Positions 1 through 24,500 of a stretch of 64,000 nucleotides of DNA are shown one piece after another. Every line of letters begins with the position of its first letter. Position 1 is the stretch's first letter. The translations under genes were made by a program, and so were the position numbers. The notes below the pieces were generated by a model that saw nothing but the letters and a program-made list of their open reading frames with translations, did no database searches and was not told the DNA's origin. The stretch lies in IMG/VR virus record IMGVR_UViG_3300005259_000041; one strand, 5' to 3'. The stretch is from an uncultured virus (IMG/VR IMGVR_UViG_3300005259_000041) (lineage: Duplodnaviria > Heunggongvirae > Uroviricota > Caudoviricetes).

Positions 1-58
1 CCGCAAGGTATCACCAGAATAGTGGTAGTTATAGGTTCGAGTCCTATACCCAGGACCA
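1..58 (+). tRNA. 3' part of a tRNA truncated by the window edge; possible GAA (Phe) anticodon in an atypical loop CAGAATA
   Basis: T-arm ATAGG-TTCGAGT-CCTAT, acceptor 3' strand and CCA at 56-58; stem ATCAC/GTGGT at 10-26. Confidence 0.6.
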
Positions 59-62
59 AATA

Positions 63-108
63 AGCCCTCCGATTCTATATTAATACTCAGTCATAGAATC
101 GGAGGGCT
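63..108 (+). promoter_or_regulatory. 16-bp perfect inverted repeat with TATTAATA at the loop and the GGAGG RBS of the ORF at 112 in its right arm
   Basis: AGCCCTCCGATTCTAT (63-78) / ATAGAATCGGAGGGCT (93-108); TATTAATA 78-85; GGAGG 101-105; ATG 112. Confidence 0.75.
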
Positions 109-111
109 ATT

Positions 112-414
112 ATGTCTACTAAGAAACCAGGCCCAGGCACCTTTCCAATGTGGGATAACAGAGTTGTTATTAAGAGGAAGATTTTCTGTTGGACGTGGAA
201 CGTTTCTATTTCTGGCGTGACCGATGTAGTGTTCTCTCAGTTCTCTCTGGCCATGAAGGCTCTTGAGGACCATGGATATAAAGTATATGATATAGATACC
301 TTTCCATATCGCAAGGATGAAATCGGCCAGGTTACTATGGTTGGAACGTTTAAAGTAAAGCGTCATTTCCTTTGGAGAGGCGAAATCCTAGCGACGTATG
401 TTGGAGAGGGCTGA
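112..414 (+). CDS. hypothetical protein (100 aa)
   Basis: GGAGG RBS; TGA/ATG overlap with next gene. Confidence 0.75.
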   Translation: MSTKKPGPGTFPMWDNRVVIKRKIFCWTWNVSISGVTDVVFSQFSLAMKALEDHGYKVYDIDTFPYRKDEIGQVTMVGTFKVKRHFLWRGEILATYVGEG

Positions 415-857
415 TGAAATTAGTCAAGTCTGCGGGTGAAACTAGTGAACAGGGTGAGATGCTTCATTATAAGCCACATCCTGAAACCACTTCCCCTTCC
501 GACTTTAAGAAGACTGTGCTCTGTAAATATGGCCCATACACAGTCTATGCTGTAGACGGAACCTATGTAAGGGATCATTTGGACCAAGATTTCACGACTG
601 GCGGTAATCCAGGCAGATACAAGTTTGTGCCTGAAAATGAAATTTGGGTGGAGACGTATTTGCCGGAGGAAGATAAAGTGGCTTCAGCGGTTCATGAAAT
701 ACAAGAATGTGAAGGTATGAAGAAAAAGCATGAGTCTTATGACGAGGCCCACGATAAAGCTAATGAGTTTGAGCGTAGAGTGCGTGAAGTTTACCGAGCC
801 AAATTAAGCAAGGCGGCGATACTGAATAAGCTTCATTCCTTGTTTAAGGCGACTTGA
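414..857 (+). CDS. hypothetical phage protein with HExxE motif (possible metal-binding/peptidase-like)
   Basis: Start moved to ATG 414 (TGATG coupling); VHEIQE...YDEAH motif. Confidence 0.7.
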   Translation: MKLVKSAGETSEQGEMLHYKPHPETTSPSDFKKTVLCKYGPYTVYAVDGTYVRDHLDQDFTTGGNPGRYKFVPENEIWVETYLPEEDKVASAVHEIQECEGMKKKHESYDEAHDKANEFERRVREVYRAKLSKAAILNKLHSLFKAT

Positions 858-882
858 CTTTTTTCTATTAATATGTTATATT
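854..882 (+). promoter_or_regulatory. sigma70-type promoter with extended -10; TATTAATA in the spacer (866-873)
   Basis: TTGACT 854-859, 17-bp spacer, TG-n-TATATT 877-882. Confidence 0.8.
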
Positions 883-890
883 AGTTGCGA

Positions 891-1048
891 GGACGATGAA
901 CATGTTTGCTAAGGGAACCCCGAAACCACAGACGAGAACATGCCAACGCTATTGCGGTAGGCGTGTACAAAATTTGGGGGTCATGTCCTAAGTATCTGTA
1001 TCGCGGTTCAAAGACAAGGCCCCCGAGATAATCGGGGGTCTTTTATTT
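891..1048 (+). ncRNA. candidate structured small RNA between the promoter and a terminator
   Basis: GGACGATGA/TCATGTCC closing stem, inner CATGTT/AACATG and ACGC/GCGT stems; no ORF in the provided track. Confidence 0.4.
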
Positions 1049-1049
1049 T
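1019..1049 (+). terminator. intrinsic terminator
   Basis: CCCCCGA-GATAA-TCGGGGG followed by TCTTTTATTTT. Confidence 0.7.
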
Positions 1050-1062
1050 AAGGAGAAAATAC

Positions 1063-1137
1063 GCTCTCGTCACCTAACGGCCTGGTAGCAGCCTTTTAAG
1101 CTGACATAAATAGGTTCGACTCCTATCGAGAGCACCA
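1063..1137 (+). tRNA. tRNA-Lys(UUU)
   Basis: GCTCTCG/CGAGAGC acceptor, loop CTTTTAA, T-loop TTCGACT, CCA. Confidence 0.85.
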
Positions 1138-1143
1138 AAATTT

Positions 1144-1218
1144 GCCTCCGTGGCTCAATGTCAGAGCAATCGGCTCTTACCCGATAGGTTCCTGGTTCAA
1201 GTCCAGGCGGTGGCACCA
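1144..1218 (+). tRNA. tRNA-Lys(CUU)
   Basis: ATCGG-CTCTTAC-CCGAT anticodon arm, T-loop TTCAAGT, CCA. Confidence 0.9.
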
Positions 1219-1222
1219 ACAT

Positions 1223-1300
1223 CTCCGTTTAGCTCAGTCTGGCTGGAGCACATGCTTTGGGAGCATGGGGCCGGGGGTTCAAATCCCTCAACGGAGACCA
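1223..1300 (+). tRNA. tRNA-Pro(UGG)
   Basis: CATGC-TTTGGGA-GCATG, T-loop TTCAAAT, CCA. Confidence 0.93.
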
Positions 1301-1303
1301 AAT

Positions 1304-1379
1304 GTCCTTATAGCTCAATGTATAGAGCGTCTGGCTACGGACCAGAAGGTTGGGGGTTAGAGTCCTCCTAGGGACACCA
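1304..1379 (+). tRNA. tRNA-Arg(ACG), T-loop TTAGAGT
   Basis: TCTGG-CTACGGA-CCAGA, full cloverleaf, CCA. Confidence 0.9.
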
Positions 1380-1382
1380 AAT

Positions 1383-1470
1383 GGCGAGGCGGCAGCGACG
1401 GGGAGCTGTAAGTGGCTGTAACCCACTCGTTCTTAGAACTTAGGGAGTTCGAATCTCTCCCTCGCCACCA
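1383..1470 (+). tRNA. tRNA-Tyr(GUA)
   Basis: AGTGG-CTGTAAC-CCACT, long variable arm, T-loop TTCGAAT, CCA. Confidence 0.9.
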
Positions 1471-1473
1471 AAT

Positions 1474-1559
1474 GCCTAGGTCGCCTAGTGCTCGATGGCA
1501 CCGCACTTGTAATGCGGCGACGAAAGTCCACGGGAGTTGAAATCTCCCCCTAGGCTCCA
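1474..1559 (+). tRNA. tRNA-Thr(UGU) with long variable arm, T-loop TTGAAAT
   Basis: GCCTAGG/CCTAGGC acceptor, CCGCA-CTTGTAA-TGCGG, GAC-GAAA-GTC extra arm, CCA. Confidence 0.85.
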
Positions 1560-1561
1560 AT

Positions 1562-1649
1562 GCGGGGCTGGATCATTGGCTGATCACTTGCCTTCCAAGC
1601 AAGCAGGCCGCAGGGCCGTAAGGGAGTTCGATTCTCCTGCCCCGCTCCA
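1562..1649 (+). tRNA. tRNA-Gly(UCC) with long variable arm
   Basis: GCGGGGC/GCCCCGC acceptor, CTTGC-CTTCCAA-GCAAG, GGCC-GCAG-GGCC extra arm, U73, CCA. Confidence 0.85.
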
Positions 1650-1654
1650 TTTGT

Positions 1655-1731
1655 GTACCAGAGGCTGAAGCGTTCGAGGCGCTCGCCTGCAAAGCGAGAT
1701 GAAGTCCGTTGGAGTCGGACCTGGTACTCCA
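1655..1731 (+). tRNA. tRNA-Cys(GCA), T-loop TTGGAGT
   Basis: GTACCAG/CTGGTAC acceptor, CTCGC-CTGCAAA-GCGAG, U73, CCA. Confidence 0.85.
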
Positions 1732-1740
1732 AAAATTTGA

Positions 1741-1817
1741 TGGGGAGTCGCGTAGCGGCCTAGCGCATCGGTCTCTGACACCGACTATCGAGAGTTCGAA
1801 TCTCTCCTCCCCTGCCA
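1741..1817 (+). tRNA. tRNA-Gln(CUG)
   Basis: TCGGT-CTCTGAC-ACCGA, T-loop TTCGAAT, U1-U72 mismatch, G73, CCA. Confidence 0.9.
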
Positions 1818-1818
1818 T

Positions 1819-1893
1819 GCGGGCGTAGCTCAGAAGTAGAGCGTCGCGTTGCCAACGCGAAGGTCGAGATAGCATAATTCTTCGCCCGCTCCA
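1819..1893 (+). tRNA. tRNA-Gly(GCC) with degenerate T-arm
   Basis: GCGGGCG/CGCCCGC acceptor, TCGCG-TTGCCAA-CGCGA, T-arm GAGAT-AGCATAA-TTCTT, D-loop lacks GG, CCA. Confidence 0.8.
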
Positions 1894-1898
1894 AATGT

Positions 1899-1973
1899 TG
1901 ATCCCTGGTGGACCAGAGGACACACCCGGCTTTGACCCGGGAGAACAGGGGCCGGCACCCTGGGGATCTGCCA
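1899..1973 (+). tRNA. tRNA-Gln(UUG), T-loop GCCGGCA
   Basis: CCCGG-CTTTGAC-CCGGG, T-stem CAGGG/CCCTG, U1-U72 mismatch, CCA. Confidence 0.8.
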
Positions 1974-1977
1974 ATTG

Positions 1978-2051
1978 GCCGTGTTAGTTCAGTGACAGAA
2001 TACCTCCTTGGTAAGGAGGGGACGATGGTCTGATTCCATCACATGGCTCCA
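1978..2051 (+). tRNA. tRNA-Thr(GGU), T-loop TCTGATT
   Basis: CCTCC-TTGGTAA-GGAGG, T-stem GATGG/CCATC, CCA. Confidence 0.85.
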
Positions 2052-2069
2052 ACAAAGGGAGGACGGAAA

Positions 2070-2477
2070 ATGAGCTACAAGGATCAGAAGTATAAGGTTG
2101 CAATCATTGGAACGATTGATAGTGATTATTGTTATGAGTGTGGGGGAAACGATGTGGTTGTTGCCTCTATTACTGACTGGGAAGAGTTAACCTGGGTTGA
2201 GGTTGAGGCATTACGGAACGGCCTTAATAGGCTGGGCAATTCCGCTCTACACTATCGCGTAGTCTTTCAGCCTACCGAACAGAAGCAGCTTATTATTGAC
2301 TCTATGGCGAAGGGCAAGAAGATGGCCGAAGCAGCCCTCAAGGCAGCCGCAAAGGACGCCGCTGCCGCTAAGGCTAAGAAAGAAGCCCGTGAAGCCAAGA
2401 AGAAGGCTAAGACTGAAGCCGCTCGCAGGGAAGAGTATGAGCGCCTAAAGGCGGAATTTGAGCAGAATAAGAAGTAA
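2070..2477 (+). CDS. hypothetical protein with Ala/Lys-rich coiled-coil C-terminus
   Basis: GGGAGG RBS before ATG 2070 (the track start 2043 lies inside a tRNA). Confidence 0.8.
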   Translation: MSYKDQKYKVAIIGTIDSDYCYECGGNDVVVASITDWEELTWVEVEALRNGLNRLGNSALHYRVVFQPTEQKQLIIDSMAKGKKMAEAALKAAAKDAAAAKAKKEAREAKKKAKTEAARREEYERLKAEFEQNKK

Positions 2478-2529
2478 GGGCCTGTGCATTGAGCTTCGTC
2501 GCAAGACGGCTTTATGCACAGACGTCCCA
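2478..2529 (+). ncRNA. hairpin RNA GGGCCTGT...AGACGTCCC(A), copy 1
   Basis: CTGTGCAT/ATGCACAG stem, CGTC-GCAA-GACG cap, ends CCA; terminal motif recurs at 3410-3468. Confidence 0.5.
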
Positions 2530-2532
2530 TTT

Positions 2533-2608
2533 GTCCTCATGGCGAAATGTATATCGCAAGAGTTTCCTAAACTCTAGATTGGGGGTTAGAGTCCCTCTGA
2601 GGACACCA
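2533..2608 (+). tRNA. tRNA-Arg(CCU), T-loop TTAGAGT
   Basis: GTCCTCA/TGAGGAC acceptor, AGAGT-TTCCTAA-ACTCT, CCA. Confidence 0.88.
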
Positions 2609-2611
2609 AAT

Positions 2612-2694
2612 GTCAGTGTAGACGAGGTGGTCTTCTAAACCACTATTCGTAATTGGATCTGAAAATGTGGGTTCAAGTCCCACCGCTGACACCA
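2612..2694 (+). tRNA. tRNA-Arg(UCU)-like, lacking a D-arm, with long variable region
   Basis: GTCAGTG/CGCTGAC acceptor, 8-nt linker, GTGGT-CTTCTAA-ACCAC, T-arm GTGGG-TTCAAGT-CCCAC, CCA. Confidence 0.7.
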
Positions 2695-3209
2695 TATGTT
2701 TTATGAAATTTGGCAAAATTAATAGCATGTATCTCATGATGGCAATTGGAACATAAGAGTCTGCATTTATCAAGTTCAGCTTTAATTTAACTGTTAAGTT
2801 TTCGGCTTTTAACTTCTTGTATATTAAATTCCTTTGCTGTTGGGTCTATATGATGAAAACATAAAGCTGCAATGTTTTTATGATAACCACAAATTTCACA
2901 TTTTCCACCTTTATAGTTAACGTAAGATAATTTTGAAAAATATTGACGAAGGTTGGCTGATAATATACAGCATTTTTGACATGGAGATTTATATACTCCA
3001 GCTTGTTTATGAAATTCTTCAATGTTTTTTATTTCTCCACATTTTCCACATTTCTTAGTATTGGGGGGTATGTCTATTATTTTTTTTGTATTATGTCTTT
3101 TGAATGGGCTACATTGTAAACAATATTTTCTGGACGCTAAGTTATGAACTTTTCCATTGATTTTGATATATGTTTTAAATGATTTCGAACATTTTTCACA
3201 TTTTTTCAT
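2673..3209 (-). pseudogene. HNH homing endonuclease interrupted by an in-frame TAA (2787-2789)
   Basis: CxxC clusters and CEICGY..FHHIDP; same frame continues IKAELDKCRLLCSNCHHEIH after the TAA; AT-rich; GGAGG before ATG 3209. Confidence 0.8.
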
Positions 3210-3244
3210 AGAATCCTCCATTAGCTTAAGGGTAGAACTTAAAA

Positions 3245-3252
3245 TATTAATA
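3245..3252 (-). promoter_or_regulatory. TATTAATA motif upstream of the HNH gene
   Basis: Minus-strand context AGCTATTAATATTTTA matches the + strand copy at 6748-6763. Confidence 0.55.
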
Positions 3253-3271
3253 GCTAAGCTAAATTAAAATT

Positions 3272-3348
3272 GCAGGCTTCGTATAGTTGCACTAGTACGC
3301 TAGTTTCGTAAACTAGAAACGAAGGATGGTAGCCTTCAGCCTGCTCCA
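3272..3348 (+). tRNA. tRNA-Thr(CGU), T-loop ATGGTAG
   Basis: GCAGGCT/AGCCTGC acceptor, CTAGT-TTCGTAA-ACTAG, T-stem GAAGG/CCTTC, CCA. Confidence 0.8.
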
Positions 3349-3562: not shown

Positions 3563-5188
3563 ATGGCTATTTCTGATGATGTTGTACTTGATTTAGATGA
3601 AATCGATGAGCCTTGTGAGCCGCCGTGTACTCCGGGCCGAAATCACTCTTCCGATGCTTGTGAGCCCGTGGATCACGTCGGAGCAGTATCTTTAGCTCCC
3701 GGCCTGACCTCCTCTGGTAAGCATATTTCTATGGTGGACTTTGTTCCTACCGTTCTGGGTATTACGAGAGAGGAGCAGTTTCATAACTATCTCAAAGACA
3801 TTAATGACACTACTGATGTTTCCAATTTCGCTAGTCTGGAAACGCAAATTAATTTTTGGCGCGCCTTTGTCAATTCCAGCCGTCTTCAGATTACCTCTTT
3901 CGAGTCTATTAAAGACGGCAATAAAATGATTCTAAGATATCTTATCGATACGAAAACCTTTACCGAAAAGTGTCCCTTCTCTTCGATGACGGTCGATTTG
4001 TATTCCACCAATCTTACTAATATGGCCTACATCAATGATTTTGTGGTGGATAATTATGCCGACGACGAGAATGAGAAGAAGGTGGAGTTTGACGGAGCCA
4101 CTATCCATCCTTTGGGTGTGGATGATTGCACTTCCATCGATTTGGCTTTTGCGAAAATTACTACGTCCGACGGGAAAATCGTATATGTCGGTCATCACGT
4201 AAGTCGCGCTCTAGACCGGGCTGTGGCGAACGATTATCTATGGTTTGATAATCAGGAAGTCGCCCTGAATGTGAGCGACATTATTATCGGCATCTGGAAA
4301 GCCTGTCGTGATAAAGAGCGGACGGTTTGTATCGTAGAGGGTGAGAACGAAGTCGTCCGTGACCAAGAGGGCTTCTTTATGCGCGACACTTATTTGTCCA
4401 TTGTTAATGATATCAAGACGTTTTTGGATTCTAAGTCTCTGTTTCGTGAAGCTGGTATTGCCTACCGTAGAGGGTATTTGATGTATGGTCCTCCCGGCAA
4501 CGGTAAGAGTCAGCTGGCTAGATATCTATTCAATGAGTTTAAAGAGTTTAATTTATATGCCTATTATCATACTGAGCGTCGCAGAGGTGGGTCTGTTGAT
4601 GAGCGCCTAGAGAGAACCTTTGCCATGGCCAGAGATAATGCTCCTAGCTTCTTGCTCCTAGAGGATTTAGACCGTATCGTCAGCCATGGGTCTGCCTCTA
4701 AGGAAGTTATCACCATCGATAGGCTGTTTAATATGATGGATGGCGTCTGCTCTCCTGAAGGTATCGTATTACTTGCCACCTGTAACCACCCAGAGAACCT
4801 TGACATGGCTCTACTTGGTCGCCCTGGCCGATTTGATAGGGTAATCGAAGTCGGGCATCCTGATCGAGCTGAGCGCGAATCTCTTATTGCGTACTTATGT
4901 TCCTGTGGTGAGAAGTATAAGCTTAATGCTAAAGAACATAAGGCCGTGGCGCAGCTTGCCGATGCGACCGAAAACCTTAGCATGGCTTATGTGAAAGAGC
5001 TTTATTCTAGAGCGTTCCTTAAGAGCCTTAATGCTGGCCGTAGAACTCTGCCTATTAGCCCGCTTATTCTTTTGGACCTAGTGCGTGAAATTGTGGATGA
5101 AAGCAGAAATGTAGACGTGATTGCTCGCCGTACTGGATTTCGTACTGGCTATGAAGCTTCCGCTAGGGGTGAGGACCGCACGTCATGA
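3563..5188 (+). CDS. AAA+ ATPase (classical clade, BCS1-like)
   Basis: Walker A GPPGNGKS, Walker B LLLEDLD, SRH RPGRFD; start at ATG 3563 after AAGGA. Confidence 0.9.
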   Translation: MAISDDVVLDLDEIDEPCEPPCTPGRNHSSDACEPVDHVGAVSLAPGLTSSGKHISMVDFVPTVLGITREEQFHNYLKDINDTTDVSNFASLETQINFWRAFVNSSRLQITSFESIKDGNKMILRYLIDTKTFTEKCPFSSMTVDLYSTNLTNMAYINDFVVDNYADDENEKKVEFDGATIHPLGVDDCTSIDLAFAKITTSDGKIVYVGHHVSRALDRAVANDYLWFDNQEVALNVSDIIIGIWKACRDKERTVCIVEGENEVVRDQEGFFMRDTYLSIVNDIKTFLDSKSLFREAGIAYRRGYLMYGPPGNGKSQLARYLFNEFKEFNLYAYYHTERRRGGSVDERLERTFAMARDNAPSFLLLEDLDRIVSHGSASKEVITIDRLFNMMDGVCSPEGIVLLATCNHPENLDMALLGRPGRFDRVIEVGHPDRAERESLIAYLCSCGEKYKLNAKEHKAVAQLADATENLSMAYVKELYSRAFLKSLNAGRRTLPISPLILLDLVREIVDESRNVDVIARRTGFRTGYEASARGEDRTS

Positions 5189-5200
5189 TGAGGAAAGACT

Positions 5201-6748
5201 ATGACTACTTTAATTGTGTTACTGTCCATATGGTGTATTGGGAATCTAGTATTATTGGTGTATTCATTAAATGTCGGTAAGGATGTCGCGCTCCAAAGAG
5301 AACAGCTTATTCAAGAGGGAATAGATCAGTATGATAAACTGCATAAGGAACAAGATGAGTTTCATGAAGAAGAGAAAAAGTTTCATGCTAAGCTTGAGCT
5401 GTTGACGCTTCAAGCTCTTCGCTTATCTGAGCAGGAAAACAATCTTAAATCATATGGGGGCCAGTTAAACAAGGCCAAGTCAGAGTTAATTGACAAGGCT
5501 GGCATTTTAAACGTTAAAGAGCTAGCCTTAGGCGCAAGAGAACAAGACCTGTCCATCAAAGAGGCTTCTCTGGAGCACTTGGCTGAAGAATACAGGGCCA
5601 GGGTTGAGCGTGCCGCTGGTATGTCCTTGTCTGAGGGGAAGGCAATTGTCTTAGCTAGCGCAAAGAAAGAGACCGAGCGTGAAGCTGCGTTGTTTTTACG
5701 TGATGCCAAAGAGGAAGCCCAGCGCCTAGCTGACATAGAGGCACAGAGAATTTTAACTTTAGCTATTGAGCGAGTCGCCATTTCTCAAGCCCCATTGAAG
5801 TTAACTTCTCAGGTGGTGATTGCTGACGAAAACTTCAGGGGAAAGCTTATCGGACATGAAGGTAAGAACATTAGGCTGCTTGAAGAGTTAGCTGGCGTTC
5901 AAGTGCTTACTAATAATGAGGATGCAAAAGTCTTAACAGTGTCAGCCTTCAATCCAATTTCTAGGGAGCTGTGTAGGCGCACTATAGAAGAGTTAGCCTC
6001 CATTAACTTTGTCAATCCCAAGAAGATTAAAGATGTGTATGAAAAACATTCCAATGAGCTAGAAAAAGAAGTTCTTAAAACTGGCAGGGACACATTTAGG
6101 AATTTGGGTTTGTCCATGCCCAATGCCGAAATAGCTAAGCTACTGGGCAAGCTTAAGTATCGTACTTCCTATGGACAAAATGTTCTCAATCATTCTATCG
6201 AAGTTGCTCAGCTTTGTGGTGCTTTAGCCGGAGAGTTGAAGTTGGACGTAAGGCTAGCTAAGAGAGCTGGTCTGTTGCACGATATTGGAAAGGCAATTGA
6301 TATCGAGAAAGAGGGCACTCACCCTGAATTGGGCGGCATCGCCGCTAGGCGGTACGGAGAGCACGAGGTAGTTGTTAATGCCATCGAGAGCCACCATGAA
6401 GACATTGAGGTTATTAATCTTATCTCTATTTTGGTCGCAATTTGTGATGGAATTTCTGGGTCTAGACCTGGAGCCAGAAGAAATAACCTTGCTGATTATG
6501 TGAAAAGAATTGAGGCTTTAGAGGGAATAGCCCTGTCATTCCAAGGGGTTACCCAAGCTACAGCGCTTCAGAGTGGCAGGGATCTGAGGGTGGCCGTTAG
6601 CGCTGATGAGATAGATGACGTTATGTCTGCCCAGTTAGCCAATTCCATTTCTAGGCAAATTCATGACCAAATGGACTATCCCGGCAAAATCAAGGTGACG
6701 GTTATCAGAGAGAAGAGGGTAGCTGTAGTGGCAGGACAGTCACGCTAA
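5201..6748 (+). CDS. rny: ribonuclease Y
   Basis: N-terminal TM helix, coiled coil, KH (GKLIGHEGKNIR), RTSYGQNVLNH, HD motif LLHDIGKA, SRPGARR, YPGKIKVTVIRE. Confidence 0.95.
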   Translation: MTTLIVLLSIWCIGNLVLLVYSLNVGKDVALQREQLIQEGIDQYDKLHKEQDEFHEEEKKFHAKLELLTLQALRLSEQENNLKSYGGQLNKAKSELIDKAGILNVKELALGAREQDLSIKEASLEHLAEEYRARVERAAGMSLSEGKAIVLASAKKETEREAALFLRDAKEEAQRLADIEAQRILTLAIERVAISQAPLKLTSQVVIADENFRGKLIGHEGKNIRLLEELAGVQVLTNNEDAKVLTVSAFNPISRELCRRTIEELASINFVNPKKIKDVYEKHSNELEKEVLKTGRDTFRNLGLSMPNAEIAKLLGKLKYRTSYGQNVLNHSIEVAQLCGALAGELKLDVRLAKRAGLLHDIGKAIDIEKEGTHPELGGIAARRYGEHEVVVNAIESHHEDIEVINLISILVAICDGISGSRPGARRNNLADYVKRIEALEGIALSFQGVTQATALQSGRDLRVAVSADEIDDVMSAQLANSISRQIHDQMDYPGKIKVTVIREKRVAVVAGQSR

Positions 6749-13042: not shown

Positions 13043-16000
13043 ATGACAGAATCAATTCATTCGCTAAATCAAAAACGGGCCACTTTCATATTTGCTTCAG
13101 CCCCAACGGCTAATCATGATTCCGCAGACACCGTGGGAATCGGTATTACTTTTGGGGCGGGGGACATCTGGCTTAATACGACTGGATCTAGGTCTTATTA
13201 TATATGCGTAGACGATACCCCCACGGTGGCCGTTTGGCGCGAATTGGTGCCAACTACTGGAGTGTCATCTCCTCTGGTTTTGGGGTCTAATACGATTACA
13301 ACAACGGGGCTTATTACCGGCGAAGTGCCCATCAATGTCGGCACATATGGCCTTTTAACTTATACCGACCACCATGACGGTACTCTTACCTATGCTGCCT
13401 CCGAAGGGCATTTTAAAACTAATGCCTATGGGACTGGTATCATTGTAAAATTAACTGTTCCAGAGAAAAAGTTAACTCCCACCGACGAAACAGTTAATTA
13501 TGTTTATGCTGCTTATAATTCTGGGGTCCCAGAATATCGAATTAATACTGATAAATCTCTTGTCCATGATTCCGACACGTATCTTATCGGGGTGGTTTAT
13601 CGTGAAGATACGAGATTGCGGGTGAAAAATTTTAGCATTCTCGGTTCTAATATGACCAACCGAATGAATATGAGAATGCTGTTGACAGATGAAAGATTTA
13701 TTCGTGAGTCTGGATTAGGTATTACCGAAACGTCAGATGGAGTCACGAGTATTACGGTGTCTGCAGGTGGTAGTGGATATACCACTACACCAAACGTGGT
13801 TATTGCGGACCCAGTGTCAGGCACAACAGCTACGGCTGTAGCGGTCTTATCTGGCGATGCAGTAGATTATATAGACATCACCAACATGGGATCTGGTTAT
13901 GTAGCTGGTAGCACTCCATCGGTCACTATAGACCCGCCTGGCACTGGCGTTCAGGCCACGGCAGATTCTTATGTTGGTCGCGGTGTTAATCTAGCTAGCG
14001 GTGTGGGTTGGGTCGCAGCGGACAGGGTTACTTTTGCGCCGTGTTATTCTGGTATTACATCTGGCTCTAATGCAACTCTTTTGGAGTTTTGGTATCATGA
14101 CGCTGGCGGTAATTGGGTATCGGAGTACACAACTATATTCAATAACACTCAATATGATGACCCGGCTACTGGACTGCAAAGCTTAGCCGGCGGAGAATAC
14201 GGTGTTGTTTGGATTTTTAGGGAAATGTCAGCTCAGATTCCGCCAGAAATATTTATGGTACTTGGCAATGACTCATATTTGTCTTCGGGCGCCGCAGAAG
14301 CCGCAGCTGTGCCCTCATTGCCGCCAGTTTTGCCTGACATGGCAGTACTAGTTGGAAGAATAGTTATTAAAAAAAGCGAACACACGGCCACCTCTATCGT
14401 CTCCTCATTTGTTACTACGCTGGCAACCTCTGGCGCCGCATCAGATCACTCCAGCCTAACCCATTTAGACTATGTCTCGGCTGGGCACACGGGTTTTGCT
14501 GGCACAAACGTGGCCAACACATTTGCTATTGGACAAAACATTAACTCCAACGCAGTTGGCAATACCCCACTTACAGTAAAGGGGTGGAGCGGTCAAACTG
14601 CTCCATTAATAAATGCAACAGACAGTTCTGACGCTACTAAGGTCGCAGCTTATGCTGATGGCACTTTGGATGCCGTTAAAGTTGGCATTCTTGAGGGTGG
14701 AACCACCCCTACCTATTATCACTATTTTCAAGGTGGAGATTTAAGCGGAGCGGACGTTACTTATACTTTACCCGTTGCTCTGCCAGCGGGCAATGGTTAT
14801 GTTTTGGCGTCGACGACTGGCGGTGTGATGTCATGGATTCCTGCGGGCGTTGGGACAGTCACTAGTGTTGGACTCGCTCTGCCAGCAGAATTTACTGTAA
14901 CCAATTCGCCCGTGACGGGAAATGGCTCTCTTACGGGAGCCTGGGCAGCTCAAGATATTAATAAGGTGTTTGCTTCGCCTGCTACTGGAACACCAGGGGT
15001 GCCTGGCTTTAGAGCCCTGGTAGCTAATGATATTCCTAGCCTTTCCTATGAACCGGCAAATGCCTTATTAACAGCAATAAGTGGGCTGTCCTCCGCAGGG
15101 ATATTGGTTAGATTAACCGCCTCTAGTGCCATAGCCCGTAGTATTCAGGGCACGACTGATGTAATTGCTGTATCGAACGGCGATGGGGTGGCTAGCAATC
15201 CAATTATTAATATTGCTAGCACATACGTTGGTCAAACATCTATTACCACATTGGGTACGATTACAACTGGTACATGGAGTGGTGGGGCTATTTCAGCATC
15301 TAAGGGCGGAACGGGCGTAGACTCTAGTGGCTACACTGGTATTATGAAAGTGACCTCTGGCACCTGGAGCACGGCCACTGCAGATTCTGATTATGTGACG
15401 CCAAGCGGTAGTGTCACATTGACTAACAAGTCATTGGGTGATTCTACCACTTTCTTTACAAACGTAACAAAACCGACCAAGAGGATGAAGTTCCAGCTTT
15501 CTAGTATTACGGAGAATAATACTAGGACGTTAACTATCCAAGATGCAGATGGCACCGTTGCTTTGCTTGGAGACCTTGCCGGTTATCAGCCTGCGAATTC
15601 AGATTTGACTGCAATTGCAGCCTTAAGTACTACTGGTTTTATTACCCGTACGGCAGCGGGGTCCATGGCCACTCGAACTATCGGGGGCACGACCTCACGC
15701 ATCGCCGTTACCTATGGCGATGGGGTCGCCGCAGCGCCCATTATAGACATCGATAGCAGTTACGCCGGCCAGAACACTATTACCACTGTCGGTACGGTCG
15801 GTACGGGCGTGTGGCAGGGCACTTCCATTAAGGCTAATTATTTGCAGGCTTCCCCAGCCGATCTTGGTGATGCTGATGTTACTGTAGACCTCTCCAACAG
15901 CCACTCTGGTAGGGTAACAAATCTCACTATGGATGGCGATGTTACTGCATTAGGAGTGAAGTTAATCTCCACTTCTTATTCTACTTTAATTCAGTCGGGT

Positions 16001-17908
16001 TCTCTTTCTGGTAACCTTACGTTTACCCTTCCTGCGTCGGCGGGGACATCTGGACAGGTTCTCACCACAGATGGAAACAGTCCAGCCACTCTTAGCTGGA
16101 CTAACGGGGGTACCTCTGGAACCTCTGGCCTCAATGGCACGTCTGGTGAAAATGGAACGTCTGGTCTAAACGGGACCTCTGGATCTTCTGGTACGAGCGG
16201 TACCACCGGCTCCTCTGGAACCACTGGTAGCAGTGGGTCGTCAGGGACCTCTGGCTCTAGTGGTACCTCTGGTTCTAGTGGTTCATCAGGCACCTCTGGT
16301 GAAAATGGGACATCCGGCTCCGATGGATCGTCTGGCACTTCGGGTTCTTCTGGGACCTCTGGTGAGTCTGGCACATCTGGGTCGTCTGGGACTTCTGGCT
16401 CCTCTGGCACTTCGGGTTCTTCGGGGACCTCTGGTGAGTCTGGCACATCTGGGTCGTCTGGCACGACAGGTTCAGCTGGTACATCTGGAACGGATGGGTT
16501 TGTCGGTTCCTCTGGCTCGGCTGGTACTTCTGGAAGCTCTGGAACGTCTGGCTCCGCAGGGACTAGCGGAGTTGGCACCTCTGGCACCACTGGCTCAGCT
16601 GGCACTTCTGGCACAGATGGAGCAGCAGGTTCTTCTGGTACCTCCGGTCTCAATGGCACGTCTGGCGTAAATGGTACGTCTGGTGTTAATGGAACCTCTG
16701 GCACGAGTGGATACTCTGGGACTGCTGGAGAGGCTGGTACCTCAGGCTCCTCTGGTTCCTCGGGTACTTCTGGCTCTTCAGGTACCACAGGATTTTCTGG
16801 TACTACTGGGTTATCTGGAACATCGGGGACGTCGGCGAACAATGGGACTTCTGGGTCCTCTGGTACAACCGGCTCTTCTGGCACAACGGGGTCTAGTGGA
16901 ACGACTGGCTCTTCGGGAACATCTGGGAGTGGAGGTTCTTCTGGTACGTCTGGGTCCGGTGGTTCTTCAGGCACATCTGGAATTAATGGTACATCTGGAA
17001 TTAATGGCACATCTGGCTCTGGTGGTTCCTCTGGCACGACCGGCAGCGCCGGTACATCTGGTTCGGGTGGTTCGTCAGGTACATCTGGCTCTGGCGGTTC
17101 CTCTGGCACTACCGGCAGCGCCGGTACATCTGGCTCTGGTGGTTCCTCTGGCACGACCGGCAGCGCCGGTACATCTGGCAGTGGAGGTTCCTCTGGGACA
17201 TCCGGCTCTGGTGGTTCCTCTGGCACCACCGGTTCGGCGGGCACTTCTGGTTCTGGCGGTTCCTCTGGTACAGCTGGCAGCGCTGGTACTTCTGGAAGCG
17301 GGGGCTCCTCTGGAACGTCTGGTATTAATGGGACTTCGGGTGTAAATGGTACCTCTGGAGTTAATGGTACTTCTGGAATAAGTGGGACCTCTGGCACTGC
17401 GGGGTCTGCGGGTTCTTCTGGCACCTCTGGCGCGGGTTCTTCTGGCACCTCTGGTTCCTCTGGTACAACAGGTTCTGCTGGTACGGCCGGATCTTCGGGA
17501 ACGTCTGGGGCGGGGTTAACAGTCAATTCTAAAGTGGTTACAGACGGCACTGCTACCGATGTGGTGTATATTTCTTTATCGGCTGCAGAGATGTGTGGCG
17601 GTATTATTCAATTTAATATTCAGGTAACAGATGGAACGGATTTCCAATCTCACACGGGAGAAGTGACATTTGCCGCTGTACGCAAAGTGAACACAGTAAC
17701 TTCAGAAATTTTGGAGTTGAGGCAGTCTGAAAGCTATGCCGCTTCGTCTGGCACACTAACTGACGTCTGGACGGTAGTTGCAGATACGGGTAACAATAGG
17801 ATTAAGATACAGTTGAATGCTAATACTAGTTTGGTAGCCTCAGCTAACTATCCGGTAGTAAAATACTCTGTCGCTGAGTTTACTGGTAAAACCATAACCC
17901 CTCAGTAA
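13043..17908 (+). CDS. fibre protein (1621 aa) with Ser/Thr collagen-like (Gly-X-Y)n region
   Basis: Fibre-like repeats (GGSGY, YxGQxxITTxGT) and a ~470 aa G-T-S/G-S-S tract before a compact C-terminal domain. Confidence 0.8.
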   Translation: MTESIHSLNQKRATFIFASAPTANHDSADTVGIGITFGAGDIWLNTTGSRSYYICVDDTPTVAVWRELVPTTGVSSPLVLGSNTITTTGLITGEVPINVGTYGLLTYTDHHDGTLTYAASEGHFKTNAYGTGIIVKLTVPEKKLTPTDETVNYVYAAYNSGVPEYRINTDKSLVHDSDTYLIGVVYREDTRLRVKNFSILGSNMTNRMNMRMLLTDERFIRESGLGITETSDGVTSITVSAGGSGYTTTPNVVIADPVSGTTATAVAVLSGDAVDYIDITNMGSGYVAGSTPSVTIDPPGTGVQATADSYVGRGVNLASGVGWVAADRVTFAPCYSGITSGSNATLLEFWYHDAGGNWVSEYTTIFNNTQYDDPATGLQSLAGGEYGVVWIFREMSAQIPPEIFMVLGNDSYLSSGAAEAAAVPSLPPVLPDMAVLVGRIVIKKSEHTATSIVSSFVTTLATSGAASDHSSLTHLDYVSAGHTGFAGTNVANTFAIGQNINSNAVGNTPLTVKGWSGQTAPLINATDSSDATKVAAYADGTLDAVKVGILEGGTTPTYYHYFQGGDLSGADVTYTLPVALPAGNGYVLASTTGGVMSWIPAGVGTVTSVGLALPAEFTVTNSPVTGNGSLTGAWAAQDINKVFASPATGTPGVPGFRALVANDIPSLSYEPANALLTAISGLSSAGILVRLTASSAIARSIQGTTDVIAVSNGDGVASNPIINIASTYVGQTSITTLGTITTGTWSGGAISASKGGTGVDSSGYTGIMKVTSGTWSTATADSDYVTPSGSVTLTNKSLGDSTTFFTNVTKPTKRMKFQLSSITENNTRTLTIQDADGTVALLGDLAGYQPANSDLTAIAALSTTGFITRTAAGSMATRTIGGTTSRIAVTYGDGVAAAPIIDIDSSYAGQNTITTVGTVGTGVWQGTSIKANYLQASPADLGDADVTVDLSNSHSGRVTNLTMDGDVTALGVKLISTSYSTLIQSGSLSGNLTFTLPASAGTSGQVLTTDGNSPATLSWTNGGTSGTSGLNGTSGENGTSGLNGTSGSSGTSGTTGSSGTTGSSGSSGTSGSSGTSGSSGSSGTSGENGTSGSDGSSGTSGSSGTSGESGTSGSSGTSGSSGTSGSSGTSGESGTSGSSGTTGSAGTSGTDGFVGSSGSAGTSGSSGTSGSAGTSGVGTSGTTGSAGTSGTDGAAGSSGTSGLNGTSGVNGTSGVNGTSGTSGYSGTAGEAGTSGSSGSSGTSGSSGTTGFSGTTGLSGTSGTSANNGTSGSSGTTGSSGTTGSSGTTGSSGTSGSGGSSGTSGSGGSSGTSGINGTSGINGTSGSGGSSGTTGSAGTSGSGGSSGTSGSGGSSGTTGSAGTSGSGGSSGTTGSAGTSGSGGSSGTSGSGGSSGTTGSAGTSGSGGSSGTAGSAGTSGSGGSSGTSGINGTSGVNGTSGVNGTSGISGTSGTAGSAGSSGTSGAGSSGTSGSSGTTGSAGTAGSSGTSGAGLTVNSKVVTDGTATDVVYISLSAAEMCGGIIQFNIQVTDGTDFQSHTGEVTFAAVRKVNTVTSEILELRQSESYAASSGTLTDVWTVVADTGNNRIKIQLNANTSLVASANYPVVKYSVAEFTGKTITPQ
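16106..17515 (+). repeat. coding triplet repeat (G-T-S/G-S-S)n
   Basis: 9-nt periodicity with synonymous divergence. Confidence 0.9.
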
Positions 17909-20516: not shown

Positions 20517-21532
20517 ATGAGATGTCCTCTGGGGAATAACGTATCAGATATGATTACTACGCCACTAGGTAATCAGCTATTATTTTCTCTTTACGATGGC
20601 GCTAAGGTTGAAATAATCGGCGCCAAGAAAGCCACTTACACTGTAAGCTTCATAGACGCAGATAATGGTTTTCTTTTCTATAAAACAACTATTCCAACTG
20701 GGCATTGGGCCTCCCCGTCACCGAAGTATTTCATTAGGTGGCATGTGATAGTTGAGGAAGAGGGGGTTGGCATATATGATTATGTTATTGACCTTAAGGA
20801 CAAGAAAATCTGGATAGGCTTAGACAGCGCGTCTCTTGGCGATTCCGTAGCGTGGCTTCCCTATGCAGAGGAATTCAGAAAGAGACACCAATGTAAGGTA
20901 CATGTTTCTACGTTTAGGAACTCTCTTTTCGAGGGCATGTATCCAAATCTCACCTTTAAGTCTACCGATGTTGATAATACCGAGGGCGGGTATTATGCAA
21001 TATATCTGATTGGTGCTTTCGACAATAATTATAGTAGAAACAAGAATAATTGGCGAACTGTTCCATTGCAGCAAGTGGCATCTGATATTTTGGGGTTAAA
21101 ATATACTGAAGTCAGGCCAAGGGTTATGAGATCCGATAAACCCCGCCCCATCTCAGATAAATATGTCTGCATTGCAGAGTTTTCCACCATTCAGAGTAAG
21201 TTCTGGAATTATCCTGGCGGATGGCAGCAAATTGTAGATTATTTAAATTCTTTGGGATTTAAGGTAATGGCTGTTAGTAAAGAGCAATCTTCTCTCTCCA
21301 ATGTTATCTACATGAATGATAAGCCCATTGAGGAAACCATACGCAACATTCAACATGCAGAATTTATGATTACTATTGGCACTGGTCTTGCATGGGTAAC
21401 GTGGGGACTTAACGTTCCCCTGATTCTTATCTCTGGGTTCAGCGACCCCATAAGTGAAATGAAAGATTGTGTGCGCATTCATAATCCTAATGTGTGCCAT
21501 GGGTGCTATAATGATACGAACTTTCCTTTTGA
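20517..21532 (+). CDS. TibC/BAHT-like (GT9-related) protein O-glycosyltransferase; 3' end lost in N-gap, may be fused to next ORF
   Basis: SPKYFIRW, SLGDSVAWLPYAEEFRKRHQC, KFWNYPGGW, TGLAWVTW, LISGFS, VCHGCYND resemble autotransporter heptosyltransferases. Confidence 0.75.
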
Positions 21533-21567
21533 NNNNNNNNNNNNNNNNNNNNNNNNNNNNNNNNNNN

Positions 21568-24500
21568 GCAAAGCGACAATTTGCGACGCATAGCAATGCC
21601 CCTGGTGATGCTAATATTGTGAGGGACGTAGTTGTAAAAGATGAATACAGGTTGGCGGAAATCTCTAGGACTATAACTCCAAATGTCATTGTGGACGTAG
21701 GCGGCCATATTGGCAGCTTTGGCGTTAAGGCCAAATCTATTTGGCCTGAAGCCCGACTCATTGCATTCGAGCCGACGGCTTCCTCCTTCGCACTCTATCA
21801 AGAAAATTTAAAGCGATTTAACTGCGAGGGGTTGGTGCGTCAGGTTGCCATATCTTATGCCAATAAATCTTGCATTGCGGACGACTCTGATTGTTTTGGC
21901 AGCGGCATTTTAATTGACGAAAACGAAATAGATGTAGATGGTAAAATTTTAACGGACGCTAAGGTTTTTTCGGGAAAGAAACACATCATTACCGAGAGAA
22001 ATGTTATCACCAAAACCTTAGAAGACGTCATGTTAGAGCATGATCTAGACAACATAGATTTATTAAAGTTAGATTGTGAGGGTAGTGAAGTAGATATTCT
22101 TAAAAATATGTCTGCTAAAACTGCATCTAAAATCAATTGTATAGTTGGAGAATTTCACTGCTCTGGGGGATTTGAAGAATTTAGGGCTCTTCTGCTTTCT
22201 AAGTTCCCATTGCATCAAGTGTCATTAGTAAAAAGCATGAATGAACACGTAGGTTCTTTCGTGGCACGACCAAGAAAGGCACTTAAAATTAAGCTGGTGC
22301 ATATACTATCTCGCCCAGAGACAACGGTGGAAAGGCGCTCTATAAATAGCCTGTCGCAGCTTAAGCAGTTTGGAATTGAATATGTCCAGCAAGTTAACGG
22401 CTATGAAACAAAGCTACCCGCAATAGAGCCGAAACATCCGACAGGGGTGTGGGGGCAACCATTAAAACCTGGATACTATGGCGTGTGGAAGGCCAACCGC
22501 AGGTCAATCGAAGAGGAGTTTCATGACGATGTAGATTTTCTGGTGACATGCGAGAGGGATGTCACTTTAGCAATTCCTCCCGAAGAATGTTATCAGAAAA
22601 TGCTCAGATGTATGTATGCCGCCCTCGACGCTGGTGTGGACTATCTAAGTTTTGGTTATAAGAATTCGTTTATGCACGCTTATCAGGTTGTCCACTCTAA
22701 GGAGCTGGAAAGTATTAATGATGAGATGTTTATTACTGATCAGATTATCGGCTTACAGTGTATAGCTTTTCCTCGTAGCACGCGGGACTTTTTGTTCCAT
22801 GTTTTTAAAACTGAAAAGTGGTATGCGTCTGATATTTGGTTTAATGAAGTGTTCCGTGCGGCAAACAAAAAATTAGCCATAGTTAGAGAAGCCTGTGTCA
22901 TTCATGATGACGAAGGGGACTCGGTTATAGACCAGGGACACAAGCCAATCATTGGGGCTGTGACTGACAATAGAAATCGTCCCGGGGGATTCATCATTAA
23001 CACTAGGACTGGTGCAGCGGAAAGCGGAGATTTGCATGTCGTGGGAGAAATTTTAACTAAAGATGGCTATGAGTTGGACAATATTAAGCGCATTTTGCCT
23101 ACATGTCCAAAAGCGATAGTGGATGTTGGTGGGCATATTGGTTCTTTTGGTTTAAAGGCTAAGTCTTTATGGCCTTCAGCTAAACTGGTCGCATATGAAC
23201 CAAATGTAGAGTCTTGCGAACTGTACAAACAAAATATGAACAGTAATGCGTTTTCATATTACACTGTGTACAATGAGGCGGTTTCATATGAGCAAGACAA
23301 GACTATCTTAGTCGAAGACGTTACGTCAACGGATGGTGGAGTGCTTACTAATAGGGCACTGTTCAATGAGGCCACCGGTCGCCTGGCATTAGATAGGTTG
23401 AATCCACTTGCGAAGTATCGTGTTGGGCGCAGCAACGTCCCATCGTTAACAATCGAACAGCTAATGAGTAGAGATAATTTAGAGTATATAGACATTCTAA
23501 AGTTAGATTGCGAGGGCAGCGAAATTGAAATCTTGCGTCAAATGCTACCAGAGACAGCTCAAAAAATAGGTCTTATTGTTGGTGAATTTCATTATGCTGG
23601 CGGGTATACTGAGTTCGTCAGTCTTTTGAAACAAAAATTTCCTAACTTCCTAGTCATTCCTCTCACCTCCCCTGGTCCGTGCATTGGGCAGTTTATGGCA
23701 GCTCCCCCAGAAATTATAAACAATATCCATACAGCTAAATCGACAGCCATTAAGACATCCGCCACCCGCGCTTTAGTGACTGGGGGCGCGGGTTTTATTG
23801 GTTCCCATTTAACCGACCATTTAGTCAGGTCTGGATATGAGGTGGCGGTCTTAGATAATTTGTCATCTGAATCGAGTAATATCCAAAATGTAAACGCTAT
23901 GGCTAAGTTTTATCGAGGAGACACCACTTCCAAAAAAGAAGTAGATAATATATTTGATGAGTTTAGGCCGGATATAGTTTTCCATTTGGCCGCTAAAATA
24001 TCTGTACCAGAATCTTTCGTGAATCCGGCTGAAACCACTGAAGTTAACGTAGCTGGCTCTTCAAGGGTTCTTGAGGCATCAAAAAGATGCGGTGTAAAAA
24101 GATTTGTATTTATGTCTTCTGGCGGTGCCCTTTATGGTGAGACAGCTCAGCCTGCCAATGAAGAGGCTCCCACTCGCCCAGTGAGTCCATATGGCGTTAG
24201 TAAACTTTGTTTTGAAAATTTGTTAATGCTTGGCGACAATGGAAGTATGGACGTTGTTATTTTGAGACCATCCAACGTTTATGGTCCCAGGCAGCAATCA
24301 GGAGTCATATCGGTGTTTATGAAGCGGCTTGCAAAGGGCCTTATGCTAGATATGTATGGAGAGGAATCGAATAACTCTGTGCGAGATTATGTTTTTGTGA
24401 GTGATGTTGTTTCTGCGCTGGCCATGTCAATAACTCTATCTCCCGGGATTTATAATGTTTCGACTGGTGCTCAAACCACTATACGCGAGCTGGTTGCTAG

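Follow-up and report, generated by a model that had tools for sequence, protein, structure and literature searches.

Alternative 19:56 base pairs at the tRNA elbow in the tRNA array of an uncultured jumbo phage

Results

A dense tRNA array with six altered elbows

We examined a 64,000-nucleotide stretch of DNA from an uncultured virus assigned to the Caudoviricetes (IMG/VR record IMGVR_UViG_3300005259_000041), the whole of which is called the window below. It opens with a dense plus-strand array of about 16 tRNA genes (1-3348), separated mostly by spacers of 1-9 bases and ending, in 16 of 16 members read from the sequence, in an encoded CCA. Six of these tRNAs lack both of the conserved bases G19 and C56, which ordinarily pair across the D and T loops at the tRNA elbow. 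Five of the six carry a different, unambiguous Watson-Crick pair at 19:56, and the sixth, a Cys tRNA, has either a Watson-Crick or a wobble pair depending on the register chosen for its D loop. Five other array members have the canonical G19:C56.

ARAGORN called 10 tRNAs in the array and the Rfam model RF00005 called 13 across two scans. A covariance model of our own (R1), run with its filters off, contributed a further weak tRNA-like element, along with the 3' portion of a tRNA truncated at the window edge. With default filters R1 lost several of the odd tRNAs; with filters off these were recovered and many D loops were treated as insertions, and R1 served as a catalogue only, not for column counts. 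Positions 19 and 56 were taken from the Rfam alignments (RF00005 gathering threshold, 29 bits). ARAGORN missed five of the 15 whole array members (six of about 16 with the edge-cut tRNA), including the Cys tRNA with G56 and a Gly tRNA that has a 9-nucleotide T loop and no GG in its D loop. The six altered tRNAs, and a Lys tRNA with a mismatch at the same positions, are as follows.

1304-1379, plus strand: tRNA-Arg(ACG); G18 at 1320, U19 at 1321 opposite A56 at 1359; D loop AATGTATA, T loop TTAGAGT; 62.2 bits
2533-2608, plus strand: tRNA-Arg(CCU); U19 at 2550 opposite A56 at 2588; D and T loops as in Arg(ACG); 60.8 bits
1474-1559, plus strand: tRNA-Thr(UGU); long variable arm; C19 at 1491 opposite G56 at 1539; T loop TTGAAAT; 49.2 bits
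3272-3348, plus strand: tRNA-Thr(CGU); C19 at 3290 opposite G56 at 3328; A54/U58; T loop ATGGTAG; 42.7 bits
1978-2051, plus strand: tRNA-Thr(GGU); A19 at 1995 opposite U56 at 2031; C55; T loop TCTGATT; 54.9 bits
1655-1731, plus strand: tRNA-Cys(GCA); G56 at 1711; Rfam 41.2 bits; missed by ARAGORN
1144-1218, plus strand: tRNA-Lys(CUU); G18-U19 at 1160-1161 opposite C56 at 1198, an uncompensated mismatch; 63.6 bits

All six altered tRNAs score above the RF00005 threshold (41-62 bits against 29). Each has a cloverleaf with 7 of 7 acceptor-stem, 5 of 5 T-stem and 5 of 5 anticodon-stem pairs, a D stem of 3-4 pairs, and T and anticodon loops of 7 nucleotides. The rest of the elbow is also largely retained, with G18 and a purine at position 57 in all six, U54/A58 in five (the exception being Thr(CGU), with A54/U58) and U55 in five (the exception being Thr(GGU), with C55).

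The initial annotation had read, by eye, U19:A56 in both Arg tRNAs, C19:G56 in Thr(UGU), Thr(CGU) and Cys, and A19:U56 in Thr(GGU). The Rfam alignment places the same bases at 19 and 56 in all of these except Cys, and all three alternative Watson-Crick pairs (U:A, C:G and A:U) do occur within one array. The D-loop posterior of Thr(CGU) in this alignment is low, at about 0.4-0.7. For Cys, which the initial annotation had marked as its least certain case, the reading of G56 holds, as does the C:G pair in the reader's register, in which the partner is C 1671; Infernal's register places U 1673 there and gives a U19.G56 wobble. The same annotation had described the GT of Lys(CUU) as facing C56 without compensation, and the alignment agrees, with U19 opposite C56.

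Covariation of positions 19 and 56 in viral tRNAs

IMG/VR was probed with the Arg T arm, varying only position 56 (A, G or T) and leaving the D loops unselected. The base at position 19 followed the probe. With A56 it was U in 15 of 15 distinct tRNAs; with G56 it was C in five of six, the sixth having G; and with U56 it was A in 38 of 45, the rest comprising five G (a G.U wobble), one C and one U. The U56 tRNAs alone span 13 amino-acid specificities.

The same relationship was found with a blind rule that skips the first two bases of the D loop, goes to the next G and takes the base following it as position 19; the rule was applied to 445 types of tRNA drawn from every viral locus. Among the 74 types that lack C56, the 19:56 combination was Watson-Crick in 57 and wobble in six. 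When position 56 was shuffled among these 74 types, the mean number of Watson-Crick pairs was 31.1 (standard deviation 3.3, maximum 45), and 57 was reached in none of 10,000 shuffles. Other pairings of a D-loop with a T-loop position gave 8-49 Watson-Crick pairs, the highest being effects of base composition (A19 with U54/U55, and D-loop U with A58).

We also built an alignment (A6) of 58 distinct phage tRNAs of identical architecture, which MAFFT aligned without gaps and in which G18 is invariant. An earlier MAFFT seed of 70 mixed tRNAs (A2) was dropped, having scattered G18G19 over several columns. In A6 the 19:56 states are A:U in 23 tRNAs, G:C in 22, U:A in seven, C:G in two and G.U in one, with three unpaired. 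The positions are paired in 94.8% of the tRNAs, against 95.2-99.3% for the four cloverleaf helices and 52.2 +/- 4.4% in shuffles, which reached the observed level in none of 500 trials. The covariation score is 1.157; shuffling lowers it to 0.271, and sliding the partner column gives no more than 0.347. Pairing between 19 and 56 exceeds chance, and in these 58 phage tRNAs it covaries as strongly as the cloverleaf helices do. The covariation with related phage tRNAs on which the initial annotation's reading depended is seen here and, again, in an orthologue switch described below.

Orthologues in related phages

A search with the AAA protein encoded downstream of the array found three related records, including a 332,730-bp viral contig that is rated 100% complete (G001, of which L001, L003 and L067 are copies) and carries 26 or more tRNAs that pass the Rfam threshold. 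A second relative, L002, is a contig of 15.7 kb. The protein-based search also gave two short contigs without an array, and we found no close relative in the cultured-phage collection. Among the records found, G001 and L002 have a comparable array, and covariation within the clade therefore rests on three phages. The neighbouring protein is 60-73% identical across these phages.

The clearest case is tRNA-Thr(CGU), which aligns between the window and G001 without gaps over 73 nucleotides with eight differences. From the window to G001, C19 becomes U19 and G56 becomes A56, replacing a C:G pair with a U:A pair; G57 becomes A57, keeping the purine, and U17 becomes C17. Two T-stem pairs are altered and still paired, one having changed on both sides to become G:C and one ending as a U.G wobble. 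Among the D-loop bases, position 19 alone is able to pair with position 56 in both phages. The Cys orthologues also differ at the elbow: G56 in the window is A56 in G001, where it faces U19 with a high Infernal posterior, and A56 in L002, where it has no complementary partner.

The remaining orthologues are more conservative. Arg(ACG) does not differ between the window and G001 and has three changes in L002, Arg(CCU) has one change in L002, and both Arg tRNAs and Thr(UGU) keep the same 19:56 pair in every phage that has them. In Thr(UGU) both loops are kept and the stems differ by compensated changes, as do the stems of Pro and Tyr. As a separate observation, the G001 orthologue of Arg(CCU) (L275 3802-3877) has a very similar body and an anticodon loop of 9 nucleotides, two bases longer than usual, and ARAGORN calls it Gly(UCC).

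These comparisons bear on whether the alternative pairs might be an artefact of numbering, the base called 19 being in truth 17, 20 or 20a and the pairing a product of the register chosen. Such an error would fit the D-loop posteriors of 0.4-0.7 in several of the tRNAs, and it is a point against our own reading that D loops can be numbered in more than one way. In the G001 Thr(CGU) and in an Arg-like tRNA of G001, Infernal moves the register by one position (posterior about 0.5-0.6), and it places the window Cys D loop differently from the initial annotation. In the gapless set of 58 tRNAs, however, position 19 is a fixed column next to an invariant G18 and is the sole column that covaries with position 56, and the Thr(CGU) orthologues pair in both phages only by way of this position. 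We consider a numbering error a very improbable source of the pattern.

Alternative 19:56 pairs in bacterial tRNAs

The same T arm, with D (A, G or T) at position 56, was used to scan the species-representative genomes of GTDB and matched at least 121 loci. Among the matches listed, 52 loci have the match inside a tRNA called by ARAGORN. Position 56 is U in 44 of these, with a D loop that has a single G followed by A in 43 and GG-A in one; it is A in five, of which four have G-U and one has GG-U; and it is G in three.

Many of the listed bacterial matches are single tRNA genes on large contigs of 220-430 kb. They include A19:U56 in Val(UAC) of Ca. Enterousia and other metagenome-assembled genomes of Alphaproteobacteria (contigs up to 430 kb), in Trp(CCA) of Dialister and Veillonellales (contigs up to 230 kb) and in Arg(ACG) of Bacteroidales, as well as U19:A56 in Gly(GCC) of Saccharibacteria on a 269-kb contig. 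Other matches, on short contigs or within tight clusters of tRNA genes, may be phage-borne. Given the bacterial examples on large contigs, an alternative 19:56 pair is a general, rare feature of tRNAs and not a signature of phages. In cultured phages, a search for the U19:A56 Arg tRNA gave no match at an E-value of 1e-8, and the Arg matches examined at 0.01 (in PA5oct, Sixama and Alone3) all had the canonical GG and TTCGAAT.

Other members of the array and neighbouring genes

The remaining tRNAs of the array with ordinary elbow sequences, most of them also called by ARAGORN, are listed here.

1-58, plus strand: 3' portion of a tRNA truncated at the window edge; T loop TTCGAGT (canonical), encoded CCA; R1 match 28-47
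1063-1137, plus strand: tRNA-Lys(UUU); canonical G18G19/C56; Rfam 49.6 bits; missed by ARAGORN
1223-1300, plus strand: tRNA-Pro(UGG); canonical elbow; found by ARAGORN and Rfam
1383-1470, plus strand: tRNA-Tyr(GUA); long variable arm, canonical elbow; found by ARAGORN and R1
1562-1649, plus strand: tRNA-Gly(UCC); long variable arm, canonical elbow; found by ARAGORN and Rfam
1741-1817, plus strand: tRNA-Gln(CUG); canonical elbow; found by ARAGORN and Rfam

Several tRNAs whose variable arm would normally be short carry a long one, both in the window (Thr(UGU), 1474-1559, and the Gly(UCC) listed above) and in G001, where the tRNAs concerned are Ile(UAU), Lys(UUU), Gln(UUG) and Gln(CUG) (L275 782-872, 1450-1536, 2604-2686 and 2876-2960). 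Three further members of the array depart from the standard tRNA in other ways.

2612-2694, plus strand: tRNA-like RNA; UCU anticodon loop, D arm absent, canonical T loop, encoded CCA; Rfam 37.7 bits
1819-1893, plus strand: tRNA-Gly(GCC); no GG in the D loop (AGAAGTA), 4-bp T stem, 9-nucleotide T loop; Rfam 49.2 bits
1899-1973, plus strand: weak tRNA-like element of doubtful status; found by R1 only, 15.4 bits

The UCU tRNA-like RNA has five bases in place of a D arm and a 20-nucleotide stretch containing TTGG before its T arm. It is identical in G001 (L275 3884-3962), and its counterpart in L002 (5286-5364) has compensated changes in the acceptor and anticodon stems. It may serve as a reader of AGA, which makes up 26% of the Arg codons of the window. 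The 9-nucleotide T loop of Gly(GCC) differs at four bases between the window and L002 (5115-5185), and the Gly(GCC) of G001 has a normal T loop with C19:G56. Related Gly and Lys oddities lie at L275 1551-1627 and L002 4317-4392 in the relatives, where two Lys tRNAs have a 10-nucleotide T loop. The element at 1899-1973 has a six-pair acceptor stem, a UUG anticodon loop, the T loop GCCGGCA and an encoded CCA, and was called neither by ARAGORN nor by Rfam at E-values up to 10.

G001 also carries three tRNAs with G at position 55, namely Met CAU, Gly UCC and Asp GUC (L274 511-582, L275 3725-3795 and L273 6475-6547). In Gly UCC (by Infernal) and Met CAU (read by eye), the G18 site holds an A that is followed by a base complementary to position 56, and the D loop of Asp GUC holds a similar A-C. 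An A18/G55 swap may thus be combined with U19:A56 or C19:G56 in these tRNAs.

A small plus-strand open reading frame (2043-2477) interrupts the array. An AT-rich frame of 144 amino acids on the minus strand (2787-3221), also between tRNA genes, has no Pfam match; bases 2726-2921, which run into it, resemble stretches that are annotated as HNH endonuclease in some phage records. Downstream of the array lie an AAA ATPase (3563-5185), whose gene has the same position in G001 and L002, and an RNase Y-like protein with RNase_Y_N, KH and HD domains (5201-6745). Contractile-tail genes follow, among them a tail tube initiator, a tail collar protein and an M23 peptidase, together with a weak, sub-cut-off match to the C-terminal domain of a tail sheath. 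The phage is a jumbo myovirus, and the window is probably part of a genome of about 330 kb. Three large proteins of unusual make-up are also encoded: a 1621-amino-acid protein with collagen triple-helix repeats (13043-17905), a 1385-amino-acid fusion of methyltransferase, sugar epimerase/dehydratase and glycosyltransferase domains (21469-25623), and a PKD-repeat protein with a Hint (intein-like) module (33246-36476).

Discussion

Working tRNAs or decaying genes

Unusual tRNAs in a phage genome might simply be non-functional genes in which bases 19 and 56 are complementary by chance. The array does contain members that look degenerate, including the Gly tRNA at 1819 with its 9-nucleotide T loop, the RNA at 2612 without a D arm and the poorly scoring element at 1899; Lys(CUU) is uncompensated; and the D-loop GG is absent from 33 of 371 C56 types in the phage sample. 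The altered tRNAs nevertheless score well above the Rfam threshold, their stem changes are compensatory, and the Arg genes show few or no differences between phages that share only 60-73% identity in the neighbouring protein. The covariation statistics also argue against chance. The orthologue, blind-rule and A6 results largely refute decay, which we regard as highly implausible for the six. The initial annotation had argued for selection on shape over decay, and this view is supported by the C:G to U:A switch in Thr(CGU), the helix-like covariation, the retained G18 and purine 57, and the compensated stems.

We favor the explanation that the altered genes encode working tRNAs with an elbow of canonical construction, in which 19:56 evolves like an ordinary helix pair, and we put the probability of this at roughly 60%. 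Indirect signs that they may fold, become charged and serve in translation are their Rfam scores and encoded CCA, their conservation, the compensated stems and a match to heavily used codons. Of the 20,053 codons in the open reading frames of the window, 8.5% are for Thr, whose four codons are all covered by the three Thr tRNAs; AGA and AGG together make up 50% of Arg codons. A look through public sequencing runs gave four DNA runs sharing 0.05 of the words and no RNA run. The changes themselves would be mostly neutral, compensatory drift in fast-evolving phage tRNAs and not adaptation.

How an alternative pair might serve

Residue 56 pairs with residue 19, G18 intercalates between 57 and 58, and the resulting stack of A58, G18, R57 and 19:56 terminates in a flat, exposed face (PMC4810234). 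The ribosome uses this face at each of its three sites, and RNase P and other partners use it too; the contacts include the A-site finger, protein L5 and the E-site 23S rRNA (PMC4810234). The elbow of the altered tRNAs would be built as usual, from G18, a purine at 57, a 7-nucleotide T loop and a 54/58 pair, with only the identity of 19:56 differing. An alternative pair could then do the work of G19:C56 by locking the two loops together and presenting the same flat outer face for stacking. The partners of this face may need a planar pair and not particular bases, and if they need only planarity, 19:56 would be able to drift by compensation. An engineered pre-tRNA with A19:U56 was cleaved normally by protein-only RNase P (PMC4797305, Table 4).

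Such drift would be expected to run along two series linked by transitions, one of G:C, G.U and A:U and the other of C:G, U.G and U:A, with the wobbles as intermediates. G19.U56 wobbles were seen in five of the 45 U56 tRNAs, and a U19.G56 wobble may be the state of the window Cys tRNA. A flip from one series to the other would require transversions on both sides and is expected to be rare but stable, in line with the constancy of C19:G56 in Thr(UGU) and the wide spread of the Arg family with U19:A56. A phage tRNA that serves a single cycle of infection may have no need of the enzymes that read particular T-loop bases, such as those forming m5U54 and Psi55. Dispensing with these readers would relax the constraint on base identity.

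Besides the uncertain registers described above, several points count against this explanation, or at least against strict neutrality. Our covariation samples were enriched for T arms without C56 by our own probes. Many of the sampled Arg tRNAs are related to one another, and the shuffle tests ignore this kinship and overstate significance. The altered share of the array (six of about 16 tRNAs) is high. In Thr(CGU), all eight differences from G001 fall within the D loop and T arm, which comprise 27 of the 73 positions; counted as about five events, clustering of this kind has a probability of roughly 0.007 by our own arithmetic. Finally, G001 encodes RtcB, an RNA ligase (355.7 bits), together with a pair of adjacent PolyA_pol/CCA-type nucleotidyltransferase domains (contig positions 264121-265227 and 286161-287316), one of the latter inside a 1185-amino-acid open frame, and such enzymes fit a pressure on tRNA integrity.

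Counter-defense and self-marking as possible explanations

The last two of these points are among those that favor a counter-defense function, in which elbow bases are altered so that immune tRNases, toxins and other host readers of G19, C56 or the T loop miss the phage tRNAs, while the fit to the ribosome and RNase P is kept. RtcB and the CCA-type enzymes are functions of tRNA repair and maturation. The further T-loop departures of Thr(GGU), which has C55, and Thr(CGU), which has A54/U58, are in keeping with this idea. Phage tRNAs are known to escape tRNA-cutting defenses (PMC10264068, PMC11464382), and AriB, the nuclease of PARIS, is reported to make a base-specific contact with U16 in the D loop; changing U16 to C, the base found there in phage T5, impaired cleavage (PMC12409363).

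The initial annotation had suggested escape from elbow- or T-loop-reading host nucleases or factors, and this part of it is weakened because the same swaps occur on large bacterial contigs, in single tRNA genes. Wobble and mismatched states also occur, as drift predicts, and Thr(UGU) and both Arg tRNAs hold the same pair across three phages. In the parts of the tRNA-defense literature that we searched, no nuclease reading 19:56 was found, and the searched passages on tRNA defense and phage tRNAs make no mention of the elbow or T loop, the AriB work mentioning the D loop only. Repair functions for tRNA were not found among the 40 open reading frames scanned in the window, which is 64 kb of a genome of probably about 330 kb. 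In G001, TruB_N was not found and T4 Rnl1 had no match, in a search whose control also matched nowhere. We think a counter-defense role for the altered elbows unlikely. A wider version is more doubtful still, namely that altering 19:56, and also 18:55 and 54:58, is an adaptive strategy of giant phages with near-complete tRNA sets and RtcB and CCA enzymes, hiding their tRNAs from nucleases, toxins and modifying or sequestering factors and keeping the flat face for the ribosome and RNase P. On this version the elbow clustering in Thr(CGU) would be a trace of diversifying selection. If the swaps were adaptive, the arms race between phages and bacteria over tRNAs would reach from the anticodon loop to the elbow.

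As an alternative to evading host factors, the altered elbow might be a mark of self that lets the phage's CCA-type enzymes, RtcB or RNase Y-like protein tell phage tRNAs from those of the host. The RNase Y-like gene lies 1.9 kb downstream of the array, G001 has two CCA-type enzymes (one of them within its 1185-residue frame), and CCA-adding enzymes contact the elbow (PMC4810234). Only six of about 16 tRNAs are altered, however, and in three different ways, which leaves no common mark; we judge this quite improbable.

Significance and comparison with known systems

G19:C56 is taught as a near-invariant feature of tRNA, and tRNA-finding programs lean on it. Older tRNA compilations appear to list some exceptions. 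We found no report of natural 19:56 variation in phage tRNAs in a literature search that missed most subscription journals and the older compilations. The window adds three alternative pairs within one array, a C:G to U:A switch between orthologues, a controlled series of probes and parallels in bacteria. A natural series with all four Watson-Crick pairs would mean that only the geometry of the 19:56 contact is required, which is useful both for the design of orthogonal tRNAs and for the annotation of phage tRNA sets.

Among the closest parallels are the bacterial tRNAs with A19:U56 or U19:A56, which have the same covarying alternatives in the same T-arm context. In bacteria the swap affects one tRNA per lineage and is fixed across many species, whereas the window phage has six altered tRNAs of about 16 in a single array, uses all three alternatives and differs from close relatives in the pair used. 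Phage tRNAs that escape defenses, such as the anticodon-loop variants (PMC10264068) and the T5 tRNA-Lys that resists PARIS (PMC11464382, PMC12409363), likewise depart from the norm at conserved positions. In those cases the changes lie in the anticodon stem-loop and at U16 and resistance was measured; those of the window lie at 19:56 and are known from sequence alone.

Mitochondrial tRNAs, in which D-loop/T-loop contacts have been weakened or lost (PMC4394434), resemble the window tRNAs in departing from G18G19 and TPsiC under fast evolution. The mitochondrial contact is weakened or lost, whereas the six altered tRNAs of the window keep it by compensation, and only Lys(CUU) is uncompensated. 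With the canonical elongator tRNA (RF00005), whose elbow is formed by G18-Psi55, G19:C56 and T54-A58, the window tRNAs share the cloverleaf, the 7-nucleotide T loop, G18, R57, a paired 19:56 and the CCA end; they differ in having U:A, C:G or A:U at 19:56 and, in two tRNAs, another base at position 55 or at 54/58. The window tRNAs are a variant elbow within the tRNA family and not a new kind of RNA.

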